A stretch of 64,000 bases of DNA from Candidatus Iainarchaeum sp. Its GTDB lineage: Archaea; Iainarchaeota; Iainarchaeia; Iainarchaeales; Iainarchaeaceae. Of this stretch, positions 3,763-29,636 are shown one piece after another. Below the pieces are notes generated by a model that was not told the origin of the DNA, searched no databases, and worked only from the letters and a program-made list of their open reading frames with translations. The stretch is from NCBI GenBank assembly GCA_016202305.1, contig JACQPB010000041.1:398-64397 (forward strand). The letters run 5' to 3'. Position 1 is the first letter of the stretch; every line of letters begins with the position of its first letter. The translations under genes were made by a program, and so were the position numbers.

Positions 3763-4008
3763 CTACCGGTAAATTTTCCCTCTATGCTCAAAAGTGTGGA
3801 AAATGACCTGATTTTCGTGCACTTCAAAAATCAGCCGAAATGGAGTTACCCTGACGCTTTTCTTGCCAGCGAGGATATTGCCGAGGAACTTCCCTTTTCC
3901 GGGGTTTGCCAGAATGCTTTCCACTACCTTCTTCAATCGTACAAGCGTTGCTGAGTCCCTTATCTTGTCCATTTGCTTCCTGAACTCATCGGAAAAAACG
4001 GCTTCCAA
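3763..4008 (-). CDS. relE: RelE/ParE-superfamily toxin
   Basis: 81 aa; ..NPGKGKFLGNILAGKKSVRVTPFRLIFEVHENQVIFHTFEHRGKIY fits the RelE-type pattern. It lies 5 nt downstream of a small antitoxin-like ORF on the same strand. Confidence 0.8.
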   Translation of the reverse strand: MEAVFSDEFRKQMDKIRDSATLVRLKKVVESILANPGKGKFLGNILAGKKSVRVTPFRLIFEVHENQVIFHTFEHRGKIYR

Positions 4009-4013
4009 GCAAA

Positions 4014-4235
4014 TTACCCTCTGAAGAAGCGGTCGAGGTCTTTTCTGGAAGTGGCCTTTGTCAACTTTCCGGACTTTATATCCTGCTCGCTTCTCCGAAG
4101 GCTGCCCATGAGCGGCGCATTGCCAAGTATTCTGGCCGTTTCTATCAGCCCATCAAGCTCATCCCTCACTTTCATTGCCGTTTTAATCCTGCTTTTTGGC
4201 AAGAGCGATGATTTTGCGCCGTTCAAACATGACAC
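4014..4235 (-). CDS. antitoxin (Phd/YefM/RelB-like) of the RelE module
   Basis: ..DELDGLIETARILGNAPLMGSLRRSEQDIKSGKL.. is a typical antitoxin C-terminal pattern. The start is GTG 4235 or ATG 4175. Confidence 0.65.
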   Translation of the reverse strand: MSCLNGAKSSLLPKSRIKTAMKVRDELDGLIETARILGNAPLMGSLRRSEQDIKSGKLTKATSRKDLDRFFRG

Positions 4236-24808: not shown

Positions 24809-25680
24809 ACAAGTTCCGTATAAGTAACCGTGAAAGCATAAGCCAAAGCCAGCAGAATTATTGCCGCCACTTCAAGCACAAGAAGTACATTGCAGATAAG
24901 CCTTGCGTTCCCGTTTTCATGAGCCTTCACCCTGCCTCTGGCAATCAAACTCAGCACTGCCTGCAAAGGCGGGGTGAGCAAAGCAAGCATTCCTATCCCT
25001 GAAGAGCCTCCAAACGGGAATAGAATCGTAGCCGCGATAAGAGCAAGCCAAATGAGGAACTTTACCGCATAAAGCCTTTTCACAGAGCCGTCTTTTGAAA
25101 GGAAAAACAGGGCCAGCGGCAGCAAAACAAGGGCGCCGAGGATTGTGAAGAAAAAAATCAAAAAAAGCTGCGGCCCCGAACCATCCGAGGCTGAATATGG
25201 TTCGGCTTTTGTGAGGACAATTACGCACCCGATGCGGGATGTAGAAGGGCTGAAGCCGCATTCGCGCACGAGGTCAACCGAGGCAAGGTCAGCATCAGAA
25301 TAATCGCTTATTGTCTCCCGCAGCTCACTCTGCCTGTCGCAAAGAAGCCGGTAGGAAACACGGTAATTTCCTTTGAGCCCGATTACCTTTCCCTCCTCAA
25401 GAACCTCGAAGCTGCTGCCCCCGCGCAGCCTTCCGGGGGAAATGCAGATTTGCTCCTCTGGAAGCACGCCTGACTCAGTAGCAATGGAATTGGAATCAAT
25501 CATGGGCTCGAAGGCCGAGAGATTATTAACATCCTTGACTAGCCCCGGAGAATACGCCAACGTTTCCAAGTGATATGCAATAGTGTAGTAAGAGGGAAGA
25601 GGCGGCGAAGCCACAATGCTGGAATGGGCAAATGACGCGGCAAGAAAAACAAAAAGTATAGGCAGGACAAACCGCTTCAT
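24805..25680 (-). CDS. secreted/membrane protein (hypothetical)
   Basis: Internal start MKRFVLPILFVFLAASFAHS (signal peptide), a ~170-aa extracytoplasmic part, then 4-5 C-terminal TM helices. Confidence 0.55.
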   Translation of the reverse strand: MKRFVLPILFVFLAASFAHSSIVASPPLPSYYTIAYHLETLAYSPGLVKDVNNLSAFEPMIDSNSIATESGVLPEEQICISPGRLRGGSSFEVLEEGKVIGLKGNYRVSYRLLCDRQSELRETISDYSDADLASVDLVRECGFSPSTSRIGCVIVLTKAEPYSASDGSGPQLFLIFFFTILGALVLLPLALFFLSKDGSVKRLYAVKFLIWLALIAATILFPFGGSSGIGMLALLTPPLQAVLSLIARGRVKAHENGNARLICNVLLVLEVAAIILLALAYAFTVTYTELV

Positions 25681-25777
25681 GCCAATAGTACATGCATTGC
25701 GGAATTTAAGGCTTTGGAAATGGTTAGGCGACGGCCAGCATATCAGACCCGGCAGCGTAACGAGGCATCGCGCAAAA

Positions 25778-25809
25778 TACAGAGCCAAATAGTTAAATAC
25801 TTGTCAGGC
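25778..25809 (+). repeat. 32-nt promoter-bearing repeat, copy 1 (TACAGAGCCAAATAGTTAAATACTTGTCAGGC)
   Basis: Identical to 26582..26613. It contains a TATA-like TTAAATA ~25-30 nt upstream of the small-ORF ATG. Confidence 0.85.
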
Positions 25810-25822
25810 CGAATATAGTATT

Positions 25823-25957
25823 ATGGAAACAATTGTTATCCAAAAGCAGAAACGCCCCAAGCCGAAAAAGAAGGTTGTACGCATGGACATTATTGAGCAA
25901 CTCGAAAGGAGCTTTCAGGACATGCGCGAGGGAAAAATCAGGGAATGGAAAGATTAG
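25823..25957 (+). CDS. small antitoxin-like protein, 44 aa
   Basis: METIVIQKQKRPKPKKKVVRMDIIEQLERSFQDMREGKIREWKD. A paralogue lies at 26627..26764. The C-terminal xxDxxxG[KR]IRE tail resembles antitoxin tails. Confidence 0.5.
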   Translation: METIVIQKQKRPKPKKKVVRMDIIEQLERSFQDMREGKIREWKD

Positions 25958-26259
25958 AGCCTTTCTGCAAGCCGCTTATAAGCGTCAAGGTTTCTCAGAA
26001 TTGAATCTATTATCATTTGCTGCTCTTTCTTGCCTCCGAAACCAACTAACAGTATTTTGCCGAGATTTTCGTAAATAATGAAATACAGTCGTGCGCCACG
26101 GAACTTCTTTTCCCTGAACCATGGAAACTTGAGTGGCTTCCCGGCATATGGATTGTGCTTGAGTTGTTCTACCATTTTCCCTATCCAGACTTTCTCGTCT
26201 TTTTCAAGCGTGTTGAAAATCTCCGCGAATAACTCGGTTTTGTAAATCTGATAACCCAT
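25954..26259 (-). CDS. RelE-superfamily toxin, HigB/Gp49-like (copy 1)
   Basis: MGYQIYKTELF..NPYAGKPLKFPWFREKKFRGARLYFIIYENLGKILLVGFGGKKEQQMIIDSI. An alternative start is ATG 26346, which has a strong GGGGGTGA SD. Confidence 0.7.
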   Translation of the reverse strand: MGYQIYKTELFAEIFNTLEKDEKVWIGKMVEQLKHNPYAGKPLKFPWFREKKFRGARLYFIIYENLGKILLVGFGGKKEQQMIIDSILRNLDAYKRLAERL

Positions 26260-26416
26260 ATGGCAGATGCTGCTCCCGCGAGATAAAAACATTTGGTTGG
26301 ATGTTGAAGGGTAACAGTTCAAGATTTTCCCGTAGTTTTTACCCATTTTTTCACCCCCTTACCCTACTCGCGTAGTTTTTGATTAATCACTCATTTGAAT
26401 CACGGCGTATAATAAC

Positions 26417-26516
26417 TTTCTCATTTTTCTTATCTTTTCCTCACATTTTCTTGCATTTTTCGCACACTTTCCGCACACTTTTTAATGTTTTTTACACACT
26501 TTTAAACACATTTTTA
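26417..26516. repeat. helically phased T-tracts / degenerate (C)ACAC(T)TTTT repeats
   Basis: T-runs start at 26417, 26424, 26435, 26446, 26456, 26468, 26479, 26488, 26500 and 26511, with a mean spacing of ~10.5 bp. Confidence 0.65.
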
Positions 26517-26581
26517 AAACGCGCCATTTTGGCAATTGCACACAAAATAAGAGGTCTCGCAAAAAAACCGTTAGCAGTTAT

Positions 26582-26613
26582 TACAGAGCCAAATAGTTAA
26601 ATACTTGTCAGGC
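26582..26613 (+). repeat. 32-nt promoter-bearing repeat, copy 2
   Basis: Identical to 25778..25809. Confidence 0.85.
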
Positions 26614-26626
26614 GAAATGTATTAGT

Positions 26627-26764
26627 ATGCAGACAATAACGATTCCAAAGCAGGAATATATAATGCTGAAAAAGAAGGCTTCGCTTGCGGAAGACCTGTT
26701 TATACAGCTTGAAAGCAGCCTCAGGGATGCTGAAGCGGGCAGAATTAGGGAAGCCAAACACTAA
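26627..26764 (+). CDS. small antitoxin-like protein, 45 aa
   Basis: MQTITIPKQEYIMLKKKASLAEDLFIQLESSLRDAEAGRIREAKH. Confidence 0.5.
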   Translation: MQTITIPKQEYIMLKKKASLAEDLFIQLESSLRDAEAGRIREAKH

Positions 26765-27063
26765 TCGCCAACAATCCTGCGGTACCTTTCCAGATTGGCC
26801 AGTACATTATTTATGATTGCCTGCTGCTCTTTCTTGCCTGCAAAAGCCAGAAGAAGCACTTTTTCGGAGTTTTCATAAACGAGATAATAAAGCCGCTTGC
26901 CTTTGTACTTCTTCTCCCTGAACCATTTATAGCCGAGAGGCTTTCCGACAAATGAATTCTGCTTCAACTGCTCAATAATTTTGCTTATCCACTCGCGCTC
27001 CTCCACAGAGGAGGATTCAAAAAACCTGGTGAAGGAATCGGTTTCCAGAACTTTGTTTGGCAT
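26761..27063 (-). CDS. RelE-superfamily toxin, HigB/Gp49-like (copy 2)
   Basis: MPNKVLETDSF..NSFVGKPLGYKWFREKKYKGKRLYYLVYENSEKVLLLAFAGKKEQQAIINNV. By eye it is about half identical to copy 1. Confidence 0.7.
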   Translation of the reverse strand: MPNKVLETDSFTRFFESSSVEEREWISKIIEQLKQNSFVGKPLGYKWFREKKYKGKRLYYLVYENSEKVLLLAFAGKKEQQAIINNVLANLERYRRIVGD

Positions 27064-27146
27064 AACAAAGGCACGCCGAATCACCCTTTTAACCCTTATC
27101 CTGCCAGAATATTCCTTGATGCCGCGCTTTTGGCGGCTTTGAAAAA

Positions 27147-29636
27147 GTGGTTGTTTTGGCAAAGAAAGGCGGTTCCGGAGCGAAACCCGTGCAGGCGAAG
27201 CCCGCGGCCCGCGCGCAGCCCAACGAGTTCCTCGCCATCGAGAGGAAGTGGCAGGAGCTCTGGGAAAAGGAAAAGATATATTCCTTCGACCCCGACAGGA
27301 AGGGCGATGTTTTCAGCATTGACACGCCACCGCCGACTGTTTCCGGAAGGATGCACCTCGGCCACGCGTTCTCGTACGCGCAGGCGGACTTCATTGCGAG
27401 GTACAAGAGGATGCGGGGCTTCAGCGTGTTCTACCCTTTCGGCCTTGACGACAATGGCCTCGCGACGGAAAGGCTCGTGGAGAATAGCAGGAACATACGC
27501 GCGAAGGACTTCACGCGCGAGCAGTTCATAAAAATCTGCCTCGAGGAGACAAAGAAGCACGAGGACACGATGATTGCCGATTTCAGGAGCCTCGGCCTGA
27601 GCGTGGACTGGGCACTCATTTACAGGACAATAGACGGCCCCGCGAGGAAAGCGAGCCAGCGCAGCTTCATGGAAATATACGGGAAAGGCCGCGCGTACAG
27701 GAAGGAGGCGCCGGCAATGTGGTGCCCCTCATGCGAAACCGCGGTAGCGCAGGCAGAGCTCGAGGACATAGAGACGGACAGCATTTTCAGCGACATAGTT
27801 TTCAGGCTGGACAACGGCAAGGAACTCGTGATTGCCACCACGAGGCCGGAACTGCTGCCGAGCTGCGTGGCGGTATTCATACACCCGGATGACAAGAGGA
27901 AGAAGGAATTGCTCGGAAGGAAAGCCAAGGTGCCGCTGTTCAACCACACTGTGCCGATACTAGAGGACAGGCGCGTGGACATGCAGAAAGGCACCGGCAT
28001 AGTGATGTGCTGCACATTCGGCGACCAGACAGACATGGAATGGTACTTTGCGCACAGCCTGCCTCTCAGGGCGGGACTGACGCCTGACGGCAGGATGACG
28101 AAGCTCGCTGGAAAATACGAGGGAAAGAAAATAAAGGAAGCGAGAAAGGAAATACTCGAGGACCTCGCGGCCGCAAAGCTGCTTAAAGGCCAGAGGCCGA
28201 TAAGGCACGCGGTCAAGGTGCATGAACGCTGCAAGGCCGAGATGGAGATAATGAACACCAAGCAGTGGTTCATAAAGTACCTCGACCTGAAGCAGGAATT
28301 CCTCAGGAAAGGGGACGAGCTGAAATGGCACCCTGAGCACATGAAGGTTAGGTACAGGAACTGGATAACCGGCCTGCAGTGGGACTGGTCACTCTCGAGG
28401 CAGAGATTCTTCGGCGTGCCATTCCCTGTATGGTACTGCGCGAAATGCGGCGAAACAATACTTGCAGGGGAAAAGCAGCTCCCTGTAGACCCGCTGCAGG
28501 ACAAGCCGCCAGTCAAAAAGTGCCCGAAGTGCGGCTCGGCAGGATTCGAACCTGAAAAAGACGTGCTGGACACCTGGGCGACGTCCTCGCTCACGCCACA
28601 GATAAACTCCAAATGGGGCGAGGACGAAAAGCTGCACGCCAAAATTTTCCCCATGTCCCTGAGGCCGCAGGCACATGACATAATAACGCTGTGGGCATTC
28701 AACACCGTCGTGAAGGCATACTTCCATGCGGGAAAGCTCCCTTGGAAGGACATAATGATTTCAGGGCACGCACTCGACTCGAAAGGGAGGAAGATGTCGA
28801 AGAGCCTCGGGAACGTTGTGAACCCAGTGGAAATGGTGGAAAAGTACTCTGCCGACATGCTACGGTACTGGGCCGCGACAGGCACTCTCGGCGATGACCT
28901 GCCGTTCCAGGAGAAGGAATTCGTGACCGCGAAGAAGTTCCTCACAAAGCTTGCCAACGCATCGAAATTCGTGGCTATGAAAACAGAGGGAGTGAAGCCA
29001 GAGGAAGTTTCTGTGGAAGCATGGAACATGCGCGAAATCGACAGGTGGATACTGAGCAGGTTCTCGCGCGCGAAAAAAGAGGCAACGCAGGCGCTTGAAG
29101 CATACGAGTACTCCAGGGCGCTCTCCGCGCTCAGGAACTTCTTCTGGAACGAATTCGCAGATTTTTACATAGAGGAAGTAAAGCACCGCGTGTACAGCGA
29201 AGATGACAAGAGCGCCAGGGCGGCCAAAGCCGTGCTAGTGAAGCTGATGTCAGAACTCCTCAAGGCGCTCGCACCTTTCATACCGCACACGGCGGAGGAA
29301 ATCTTCAAAACAAGCTTCGGGGCATGCGCGAAGGAAAAATCAATCCACCTCGAGAAATGGCCCACTGCAGAGGAAGAATACATGGATGAAAACGCGGAGA
29401 AAGCAGGCGAGATTGCGAAAGCCGTGATTTCCGGGATAAGAAAGCACAAGACAGAGAAGGGCCTCGCCATGAACGCAGATGTGGGCGAGGTGACAATCTT
29501 CCTAGAAAAAGACGAGGTGCTCGCCGAGAAAGTGCTTGCGGACATAAAGGAAACGATGAAGGCCGCGGGCATTGCCATTTCCGCGGGAAAAGGGAGAATA
29601 GACGCGGGAAACGGCATTACGATTGACGTCAAGTGA
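27147..29636 (+). CDS. valS: valyl-tRNA synthetase
   Basis: IDTPPPTVSGRMHLGHAFSY..FGLDDNGLATE (archaeal-type ValRS N-terminus) and GRKMSKSLGNVVNP (KMSKS). 829 aa. Confidence 0.88.
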   Translation: MVVLAKKGGSGAKPVQAKPAARAQPNEFLAIERKWQELWEKEKIYSFDPDRKGDVFSIDTPPPTVSGRMHLGHAFSYAQADFIARYKRMRGFSVFYPFGLDDNGLATERLVENSRNIRAKDFTREQFIKICLEETKKHEDTMIADFRSLGLSVDWALIYRTIDGPARKASQRSFMEIYGKGRAYRKEAPAMWCPSCETAVAQAELEDIETDSIFSDIVFRLDNGKELVIATTRPELLPSCVAVFIHPDDKRKKELLGRKAKVPLFNHTVPILEDRRVDMQKGTGIVMCCTFGDQTDMEWYFAHSLPLRAGLTPDGRMTKLAGKYEGKKIKEARKEILEDLAAAKLLKGQRPIRHAVKVHERCKAEMEIMNTKQWFIKYLDLKQEFLRKGDELKWHPEHMKVRYRNWITGLQWDWSLSRQRFFGVPFPVWYCAKCGETILAGEKQLPVDPLQDKPPVKKCPKCGSAGFEPEKDVLDTWATSSLTPQINSKWGEDEKLHAKIFPMSLRPQAHDIITLWAFNTVVKAYFHAGKLPWKDIMISGHALDSKGRKMSKSLGNVVNPVEMVEKYSADMLRYWAATGTLGDDLPFQEKEFVTAKKFLTKLANASKFVAMKTEGVKPEEVSVEAWNMREIDRWILSRFSRAKKEATQALEAYEYSRALSALRNFFWNEFADFYIEEVKHRVYSEDDKSARAAKAVLVKLMSELLKALAPFIPHTAEEIFKTSFGACAKEKSIHLEKWPTAEEEYMDENAEKAGEIAKAVISGIRKHKTEKGLAMNADVGEVTIFLEKDEVLAEKVLADIKETMKAAGIAISAGKGRIDAGNGITIDVK

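Follow-up and report, generated by a model that had tools for sequence, protein, structure and literature searches.

The 64-kb stretch of DNA analysed here (64,000 nucleotides (nt) in full, hereafter the window) comes from a metagenome-assembled genome of Candidatus Diapherotrites (Iainarchaeum), a member of the DPANN archaea, as recognised from the identity of one of its proteins with HY544_04560. Side by side, at an offset of 804 nt, it carries two diverged copies of a two-gene module (Table 1). Each module consists of a plus-strand open reading frame (ORF) of about 45 codons, the gene of a putative antitoxin, and a minus-strand gene of about 100 codons for a putative toxin of the RelE/ParE type, and the two genes run towards each other until their stop codons share nucleotides. 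In front of each small ORF lies the 32-nt element TACAGAGCCAAATAGTTAAATACTTGTCAGGC, which occurs exactly twice in the window. No further copy with three mismatches or fewer was found in the 64 kb, and shuffled sequences lead one to expect none. The gap between the element and the ATG of the small ORF is 13-14 nt in both copies. The period, the perfect repeat and the shared stop nucleotides are thus as described in the first-pass annotation of this DNA. In the NCBI annotation toxin 1, small ORF 2 and toxin 2 are labelled hypothetical and small ORF 1 is not annotated; both larger proteins are labelled RelE/ParE family toxin in UniRef.

Table 1. Features of the two convergent modules in the window.
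Feature	Position	Strand	Remarks
32-nt element copy 1, promoter region of small gene 1	25778..25809	+	exact repeat; A-rich BRE-like stretch, TATA TTAAATAC at 25793-25800, flanks
Small gene 1, 44 aa, putative antitoxin, METIVIQKQKRPKPKKKVVRMDIIEQLERSFQDMREGKIREWKD	25823..25957	+	small-protein profile E 8e-17 (window scan)
RelE/ParE-fold gene 1, 101 aa, putative toxin	25954..26259	-	family HMM E 5e-45; 4-nt overlap with small gene 1 (TTAG 25954-57)
TATA box of toxin gene 1, TTTTTATC	26282..26289	-	-30..-23 from ATG 26259; within the mechanical N-terminal ORF extension
32-nt element copy 2, promoter region of small gene 2	26582..26613	+	exact repeat; TATA at 26597-26604
Small gene 2, 45 aa, putative antitoxin, MQTITIPKQEYIMLKKKASLAEDLFIQLESSLRDAEAGRIREAKH	26627..26764	+	small-protein profile E 8e-24; annotated HY544_04555
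RelE/ParE-fold gene 2, 100 aa, putative toxin	26761..27063	-	AlphaFold2 and Foldseek; annotated HY544_04560; 4-nt overlap with small gene 2 (CTAA 26761-64)
TATA-like box of toxin gene 2, GTTAAAAG	27086..27093	-	-30..-23 from ATG 27063
aa, amino acids; BRE, transcription factor B recognition element; HMM, hidden Markov model.

Called mechanically, the minus-strand ORFs are longer, reaching 26346 for toxin 1 and 27162 for toxin 2. The start of toxin 1 at 26259 was fixed by the alignment of homologues together with the TATA box at -30, and NCBI also calls a protein of 101 aa. A conventional co-directional antitoxin, for which the first-pass annotation had left room in the extension at 26260-26346, is excluded: the extension continues the toxin reading frame, no homologue has it, and the TATA box of the toxin gene lies within it. 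Between the two modules 20 of 45 residues (44%) are identical in the small proteins and 47 of 101 (47%) in the toxins, close to the half that had been estimated by eye; at the DNA level the corresponding values are 88/138 for the small genes, 184/306 for the toxin genes and 32/32 for the element. When the 0.8-kb units are aligned as a whole, the element matches at every position and both coding regions at approximately 55-65%, and beyond them nothing is alignable. Judged by this divergence the modules are old paralogues, as different from each other as family members of different phyla. Of the tandem duplication proposed earlier, the two adjacent modules stand, but duplication in place is uncertain because the divergence is of the order seen between phyla, and the modules may have been brought together instead.

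The minus-strand genes had been assigned to the RelE superfamily by inspection, and structure prediction agrees with this. The AlphaFold2 model of toxin 2, built on the family alignment, has a predicted local distance difference test (pLDDT) score of 94.1 and a predicted template-modelling score of 0.86, with strands (E) and helices (H) in the order E-H-H-E-E-E-E-H-H. All Foldseek matches of this model in the PDB at E <= 0.001 are RelE/ParE-superfamily toxins, namely RelE, RelE1/2, HigB2, YafQ and PfiT, with template-modelling (TM) scores of 0.6-0.7, and YoeB and ParE come next (E 0.002-0.004). The neighbours include RelE of E. coli and T. thermophilus, RelE1/2 of M. tuberculosis, HigB2 of V. 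cholerae and the archaeal aRelE; among the matched entries are 2kc8, 4fxe, 1wmi and 3bpq, of the RelE fold, and 5czf and 5cw7, of the RelE/ParE fold. A weak match to YoeB (8yxv) was obtained in the profile search, and of 15 family members tested eight match PF05016 (ParE_toxin; best E 1.4e-5) and two match Gp49 (PF05973). In the alignment of 82 distinct toxins G40, L43 and I84 and the charged residues K41, R49, E50, R57 and K77 are invariant, and F48, K51, K78 and Q80 are 99% conserved. This indicates a maintained basic surface and would fit a conserved basic active face. Since its nearest relatives are RelE, HigB2 and YoeB, the larger protein is probably a ribosome-dependent mRNA endonuclease of the RelE/ParE superfamily.

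The small ORFs, noted earlier from the two window copies, proved to be conserved as proteins. A profile built from six small ORFs retrieved 178 proteins of approximately 44-60 aa, all of them unnamed or hypothetical and free of Pfam domains, and an exhaustive HMMER scan of 1.84 billion representatives yielded 563 clusters (50% identity) at E <= 0.001. Among 81 distinct small genes the nucleotide differences at codon positions 1/2/3 amount to 0.47/0.32/0.64, and where two genes agree in an amino acid they spell it with different codons in 57% of the pairs, which argues for selection on the peptide and not on the RNA sequence. By these measures the small ORF is a real protein-coding gene. The consensus of its product reads M-E-T-V-T-I-P-K-x-E-Y-x-x-L-K-K-K-A...L-x-x-L-x-x-S-L-x-D-I-x-x-G-R-I-K. 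In the AlphaFold2 model of small protein 2 (pLDDT 88) an extended N-terminus is followed by a single helix (residues 8-36) and a tail. The protein is thus predicted to be a short β-strand, a long helix, a glycine and a basic tail, with neither a globular nor a DNA-binding fold, and no recognisable DNA-binding domain was detected in it by the Pfam scan or in the model. Small gene 1 falls into a subtype with a Pro/Lys linker, common to three further loci (L002, L012 and L014).

It is the C-terminal part, the helix, glycine and basic tail, that appears to be universal in the small proteins. At two loci (L060 and L071) the N-terminal half of the partner is unrelated to the rest of the family and the C-terminal motif is kept. 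Four relatives of 72-91 aa (P0164, P0172, P0194 and P0246) have the motif ..SLEDIKxGRIKxW doubled in tandem, and these may be antitoxins that bind two toxin molecules. At L019 (2791-3129) and L034 (1923-2219, minus strand) the convergent partner is approximately 100 aa long and joins a ribbon-helix-helix (RHH)-like N-terminal part, for which the RHH_1 match in L019 is weak (E 0.027), to the family C-terminal motif; to judge from its domains, this partner would be a conventional modular antitoxin in an unconventional orientation. An RHH identity was also considered for the small protein itself, as its length and N-terminal strand suggested. It was rejected for the family as a whole, the AlphaFold2 model being one unbroken helix, and is further excluded by the linker that takes the place of the first helix in the subtype of small gene 1 and by the replaced N-terminal halves just mentioned. 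RHH_1 was matched by two of 60 small proteins, at E of about 0.05. The commonest Pfam match is to T7 gp5.9 and is probably compositional; DUF2683, RHH_1 and VAPB_antitox are each matched by one to four members only.

The pairing of the two genes is not a peculiarity of the window. A scan of GTDB with one genome per species gave 168 toxin relatives, from which 80 loci were kept, nearly all of them from Iainarchaeum/Diapherotrites, Woese-, Pace-, Aenigmat-, Micr- and Nanoarchaeota bins. Pairs were found by scoring all ORFs of the kept loci with HMMs of both proteins. The small gene is convergent with the toxin gene, on the opposite strand at its 3' end, in 85 of 85 pairs (82 distinct), and in 79 of these the genes overlap. 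Of the overlapping pairs, 47 share exactly 4 nt and the other 32 share 6-63 nt; the remaining pairs have gaps of 0 to +3 nt (four pairs) or about +52 to +55 nt (two pairs). The 4-nt junctions read TTAA in 19 cases, CTAA in 15, TTAG in seven and CTAG in six. Among the loci in which the HMM missed a partner, L060 and L071 have diverged convergent partners overlapping the toxin gene by 15 and 14 nt, the contigs of L035 and L062 stop just beyond the toxin gene, and in L058 the partner is 401 nt away. All five contexts obtained by exact protein look-up have a gene of 44-46 aa on the opposite strand overlapping the toxin 3' end. In the reciprocal direction, four of four small proteins, picked solely for their long contigs, have a convergent partner of 103-106 aa overlapping by 4-11 nt. 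The distances of toxins and small proteins are correlated (Mantel r 0.39; 0 of 999 permutations reached that value). Both genes are protein-coding and obligately linked, in both directions, and the stop-sharing convergent layout is far more general than the window alone, about ninety loci of DPANN archaea having the genes head-on. The search of related genomes that the first-pass annotation had called for therefore came out in favour of the convergent pairing.

No conserved co-directional partner lies upstream of the toxin gene in L001-L003, and an unrelated 103-aa gene is found there in L004 and L005 only. In the locus contexts inspected no regulator gene is conserved beside the modules either. 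In L004 (1794-3139) and L005 (971-2343), which hold the same protein on two contigs, the module stands beside a HepT/MNT (HEPN-nucleotidyltransferase) pair and a DUF4258 gene, in what looks from the gene content to be a small toxin–antitoxin (TA) cluster. Modules with BRE/TATA promoters were also seen in L009 and L023, from a 'Candidatus Falkowbacteria' bin, and in approximately ten loci labelled 'uncultured Methanosarcinales'; these are likely to be mis-binned or mislabelled DPANN contigs, transfer between lineages being less likely.

The upstream regions were aligned on the start codons for 83 small-gene and 86 toxin sequences. Upstream of both genes an A-rich stretch occupies -37..-32, and next to it, at -30..-23, comes a T/A-rich octamer with an AT content of 0.88-0.95. 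The small gene has A at -34 in 61 of the 83 sequences and T at -30 in 55, and the toxin gene has T at -29 in 64 of the 86. No Shine-Dalgarno (SD)-like signal was found upstream of either gene in these two sets. The TATA-like box that had been pointed out before the small ORFs of the window, TTAAATA(C) at -30..-23 of each ATG, is thus conserved throughout the family, and all four window genes carry their TATA at the family position. The archaeal BRE/TATA box sits approximately 25 nt upstream of the transcription start. A TATA box at -30..-23 therefore places the start at or beside the ATG, and we infer that both genes are transcribed into leaderless mRNAs. As the TATA box of toxin 1 lies inside the extension that no homologue has, the toxin would be the first and only gene of its own unit. 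On this promoter evidence the two genes are best regarded as separate head-on transcription units and not as an operon.

Because the stops are shared, each 3' untranslated region (UTR) should run antisense into the partner gene, with an expected overlap of the transcripts from tens of nucleotides to approximately 200 nt. Runs of five T (T5) beyond the stops are not claimed to be selected terminators, since Lys-rich coding on the opposite strand yields T runs anyway. Rfam had no match in 25000-27600. Bacterial promoter and terminator scans gave results at chance level, and their models are not applicable to archaea.

By its composition the 32-nt element is the promoter region of the small gene, comprising the BRE-like stretch, the TATA box and approximately 10 nt on each side. 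Given a background identity of about 60%, 32 consecutive matches have a probability of approximately 0.6^32, roughly 1e-7. Comparable blocks are found in other tandem loci, where the proteins are 31-49% identical between modules: identical stretches upstream of the small genes measure 31 nt in L083, 29 nt in L070, 19 nt in L013 (within a 62/70 match) and 10 nt in L067. The toxin promoters of tandem modules mostly do not match. Identical upstream blocks of at least 17 nt do not occur in any of 2094 pairs in which the modules belong to different loci and their proteins are 35-55% identical; for orthologues whose proteins are 90-100% identical, the median block is 13 nt. The tandem arrays, to judge from these alignments, thus show homogenisation of the small-gene promoters. 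Since near-identical orthologues share a median of 13 nt only, purifying selection on the promoter alone fails to account for 32/32, and gene conversion, or recombination or insertion at the site, appears to be the better reading. Of the two causes offered in the first-pass annotation, selection or gene conversion on the element, it is therefore the second, widened to recombination, that is favoured, and ordinary purifying selection does not account for the identity. The block would be kept identical by gene conversion or recombination, or would have been copied when one module was inserted beside the other.

In L013 the repeated block takes in the 3' end of the neighbouring tRNA-Glu gene, and this end is present twice, once before each small gene; the extra fragment is located upstream of position 2942, and the doubled end looks like a footprint of integration or recombination. 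Modules directly adjoin tRNA genes (Ser, Glu, His and Leu) at L001 (2407-2491), L013 (3558-3634), L085 (2933-3004) and L020 (2021-2104). An insertion mechanism fits with the doubled tRNA-Glu end and with the several modules that abut tRNA genes. The competing explanation holds that the element is an operator under purifying selection, bound in both copies by a trans-acting regulator or by the TA complex, which would co-regulate the modules. The identical block does always span the BRE/TATA region in the window, L070, L083 and L013, and CAAATAGTTAAATACTTG forms, by eye, an imperfect palindrome (14/18) across the TATA box. The short blocks of the orthologues, the small protein devoid of a DNA-binding domain and the L013 footprint all speak against an operator, as do the absence of a third copy from the window and of any exact match in metagenome contigs to the element's 26-nt core. 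We therefore rate the operator as rather unlikely and retain conversion or insertion as the explanation of the identical blocks.

Like canonical type II systems, the modules place the genes of a putative toxin and a putative protein antitoxin next to each other. The co-directional bicistronic operon of those systems is replaced by opposite strands in all 85 pairs, and their DNA-binding antitoxin by the small protein, with an RHH-like domain only in the rare variants L019 and L034. As for type I systems, neither an antisense RNA as the antitoxin nor a hydrophobic peptide as the toxin describes these genes. The modules are closest to type II, especially to HigB2–HigA2 and PaaA2–ParE2. HigB2 of V. 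cholerae is among the best structural matches of the toxin (TM 0.68, 20-23% identity), two archaeal family members match the Gp49-type Pfam family, and the toxin gene comes first along the DNA in both systems. The short helix-plus-strand segment by which HigA2 neutralises the toxin (PMC5416850) is comparable to the archaeal helix followed by the Gly-basic tail. HigA2 differs in having a DNA-binding domain of the helix-turn-helix type and in being co-transcribed downstream of higB2, whereas the archaeal partner of approximately 45 aa, which has no such domain, is encoded on the other strand under a promoter of its own, and its gene overlaps the toxin stop. No sequence similarity to HigA2 was detected in the small protein.

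PaaA2, a small and mostly helical antitoxin devoid of a DNA-binding domain, neutralises a RelE/ParE-fold toxin. The archaeal modules resemble the paaR2-paaA2-parE2 system in both proteins, the RelE/ParE-fold toxin and the kind of putative antitoxin. The paa genes, however, are co-directional and a separate regulator, PaaR2, controls their transcription, whereas the archaeal modules have no conserved regulator gene. RelBE and YefM–YoeB, including the archaeal aRelBE, likewise have a RelE-fold toxin, and the small protein aligns with YefM in register, if not significantly. These systems are antitoxin-first, co-directional and translationally coupled operons, none of which applies to the archaeal modules, and their antitoxins are autoregulators with an N-terminal dimerisation and DNA-binding domain, of a kind that the small protein does not have. 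The type I pairs TxpA/RatA, BsrG/SR4 and Fst/RNAII share with the modules the convergent units and complementary 3' ends; their antitoxins, however, are RNAs that are non-coding or mostly so and their toxins small hydrophobic peptides, whereas the archaeal products are soluble and under coding selection. In the relBE2–asrelE2 locus of M. tuberculosis, designated 'type IIb', a RelE-type toxin is reported to be controlled by a protein antitoxin together with a convergent antisense RNA (PMC9325379). There relB2 and relE2 are still arranged as an ordinary operon, to which the antisense RNA adds a third partner that is non-coding, whereas in the archaeal modules there is no operon and the convergent transcript would itself be the mRNA of the putative antitoxin. 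In the full-text literature searched, which covers few subscription journals, no description of convergent or tail-to-tail type II modules was found, in DPANN or elsewhere, in line with the earlier remark that no TA family of this architecture had been described. The obligately convergent, stop-sharing, two-promoter organisation of a RelE/ParE-type TA module with a minimal antitoxin would then be a new variant of type II.

Taken together, we read the modules as a TA-like two-gene family of DPANN archaea with a minimal antitoxin and a two-promoter convergent layout, with a probability of roughly 0.65 for this reading as a whole. Its parts are of unequal weight: the gene anatomy, the toxin fold, the protein-coding status of the small gene and the conservation of the layout are highly probable, and the separate promoters and the homogenised promoters of tandem arrays are likewise observed; toxicity, direct binding, leaderless transcription and any antisense effect are inferred; and a functional role of antisense transcription or of transcriptional interference is less likely than not. 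The small protein is most likely a stand-alone toxin-neutralising segment. This antitoxin reading is based on the modular variants, on the matches within the window and on the precedent of HigB2–HigA2. That the small protein would bind the toxin directly is suggested by the co-divergence of the two proteins, by the doubled motif and by the weak match to the C-terminal motif of the canonical antitoxin. In HigA2 the neutralising element is a disordered segment that folds into a helix and a strand, a motif described as omnipresent in relBE-related modules, and a 20-residue peptide of HigA2 suffices to inhibit HigB2 (PMC5416850). In the window, the next-best matches of both profiles fall on a single co-directional RelE/ParE pair at 3763-4235 on the minus strand, in which the antitoxin (4235..4014) comes first and the toxin (4008..3763) starts 5 nt later. 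The toxin profile matches this PF05016 toxin of 81 aa at E 0.0019 and the small-protein profile matches the antitoxin at E 0.089, aligned over LMGSLRRSEQDIKSGKLTK. A homologue search with this canonical antitoxin found only itself. The resemblance of the small-ORF tail to the C-terminus of that antitoxin, which had been noticed by eye, is thereby weakly supported within the window, but it has no counterpart among significant Pfam or PDB matches.

In the proposed mechanism the small peptide would bind the toxin in the manner of the disordered helix-plus-strand segments of RelB, YefM and HigA2. Each gene would be transcribed, leaderless, from its own BRE/TATA promoter, the two units running head-on and overlapping by a few bases at the stop codons. 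With no operon and a promoter for each gene, the toxin:antitoxin ratio would be set by the two promoters, and perhaps be tuned also by collision or by antisense pairing of the 3' ends, in place of translational coupling or operator binding.

Several observations weigh against the reading. The window's own proteins score under the Pfam and NCBIfam cut-offs: toxin 2 matches PF05016 with E 0.015 and 16.3 bits, the cut-off being 23, TIGR02683 gives E 0.03-0.08 on the window toxins, and no toxin-family match was obtained in the Pfam scan of the mechanically called toxin ORFs of the window. The C-terminal His/Tyr found in YoeB and RelE is missing from the toxin, which has two additional C-terminal helices; for both reasons its activity is not to be assumed, and the protein may be catalytically incompetent. 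The small protein has no significant match to known antitoxins in Pfam or PDB profiles; it is not matched by the Phd/YefM family (PF02604 and the solved YefM/Phd sequences), and in hhalign it aligned with residues 39-76 of E. coli YefM, in the expected register (the YoeB-binding C-terminal half), at 5% probability, and with Axe over 13 columns at 0.7%. The predicted promoters were recognised by position-specific composition. The first T5 run lies at a median of 18 nt beyond the small-gene stop and 76 nt beyond the toxin stop, and the mature transcripts may overlap only briefly. A 4-nt stop overlap is a common form of convergent gene overlap. DPANN genomes are compact, and tight convergent packing could in part be neutral.

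The layout itself invites a stronger claim, namely that the head-on, stop-sharing arrangement is a control circuit in which one convergent gene provides both a protein (type II) and an antisense (type I) layer. The mRNA of the small gene would then act in cis on the toxin gene through polymerase collision and/or double-stranded RNA (dsRNA) at the 3' end, and the near-identical small-gene promoters of tandem arrays would tie several modules to one input. We put this forward tentatively. In its strictest form such hybrid control would be essential: dsRNA from read-through in either direction, polymerase collision, or both would set toxin expression, in place of the operator-based autoregulation that an antitoxin without a DNA-binding domain could not provide, and the toxin would still be neutralised by the peptide. 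Virtually every complete locus in the DPANN lineages has the genes convergent and overlapping, there is no intergenic room for a terminator, so each 3' UTR is antisense to the partner gene, and the small protein has no predicted DNA-binding domain. Precedents exist in the antisense control of the RelBE locus documented for M. tuberculosis (PMC9325379) and in antisense RNAs reported at archaeal type II TA loci (PMC6523106). The T5 runs near the stops nevertheless suggest short overlaps, synonymous sites are free to vary so that constraint on the RNA sequence is not visible, and the layout could persist merely through inheritance and movement of the module as a whole. An essential antisense layer is on this evidence less likely than not and is the weaker proposition beside two promoters and a protein antitoxin. 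Going further, the transcript of the small gene could be the real antitoxin, a type I-like antisense RNA, with the conserved peptide incidental or serving another role. The geometry is like that of type I systems with 3'-overlapping RNAs (TxpA/RatA, BsrG/SR4), and the stop overlap in 79 of 85 pairs would suit it, but strong protein-level selection with free synonymous change, together with a C-terminal peptide motif that persists where the rest of the protein is replaced or duplicated, makes an RNA antitoxin very improbable. In addition, the toxin is a soluble RelE-fold protein and not a small hydrophobic peptide, and the complementary stretch near the stops is short if the T5 runs terminate.

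It is also conceivable, if improbable, that there is no addiction or toxin system here at all and that the RelE-fold protein has been domesticated into a non-lethal ribosome or RNA factor, with the small protein as its regulator or chaperone. The surroundings of the modules are those of housekeeping genes, the valyl-tRNA synthetase gene in the window and GatB, arginyl-tRNA synthetase and tRNA genes at other loci; no toxin relatives were found in viral contigs, PADLOC gave only a weak and implausible JetD match for one toxin, and the C-terminus is unlike that of characterised RelE and YoeB. On the other hand, the copy number is patchy, several copies may occur and tandem arrays recur, one module adjoins another TA pair (HepT/MNT, as above), and the paralogues diverge fast while retaining the invariant charged constellation. 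These features weigh against domestication because they are typical of TA modules, and we prefer the TA reading.

Standard TA finders require both genes on the same strand and a short distance apart. If their rules are so, the archaeal toxins are scored as orphans and most of the 45-codon partners are never called, of which the unannotated small gene 1 is an example. The family would add a few hundred modules (168 toxin relatives and approximately 563 small-protein clusters) to the TA systems of DPANN archaea, which have been little studied, and it offers a natural case of a RelE-type toxin with a minimal antitoxin that is seemingly unable to bind DNA. As the genes are head-on and translational coupling is impossible, the modules permit a direct test of toxin:antitoxin balance without an operon or conditional cooperativity, and also of whether convergent transcription maintains that balance. 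In tandem modules the promoters are repeatedly identical and the proteins diverged to approximately 45%, a case of concerted evolution limited to a regulatory block or of site-directed insertion.

Two local features of module 1 may be added. In the AT-rich 320-nt spacer from the start of toxin 1 to the second element, approximately five copies of a 10-11-nt unit (CACACTTTTTA / TTTCCGCACAC) occupy 26435-26518, and module 2 has no counterpart of these repeats; their periodicity, in phase with the DNA helix, suggests a bend in the DNA or an array of binding sites. On the minus strand at 26344-26358 lies a near-perfect SD-like GGGGGTGA, 5 nt before the in-frame ATG at 26346 that would start a toxin 1 of 130 aa. 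For the motif GGNGGTGA 6.5 occurrences are expected in the window and only two are present, and TTATTATA is found approximately 62-69 nt upstream at this site. Although the extension is absent from all homologues, a longer, leadered isoform of toxin 1 may conceivably be made from ATG 26346.

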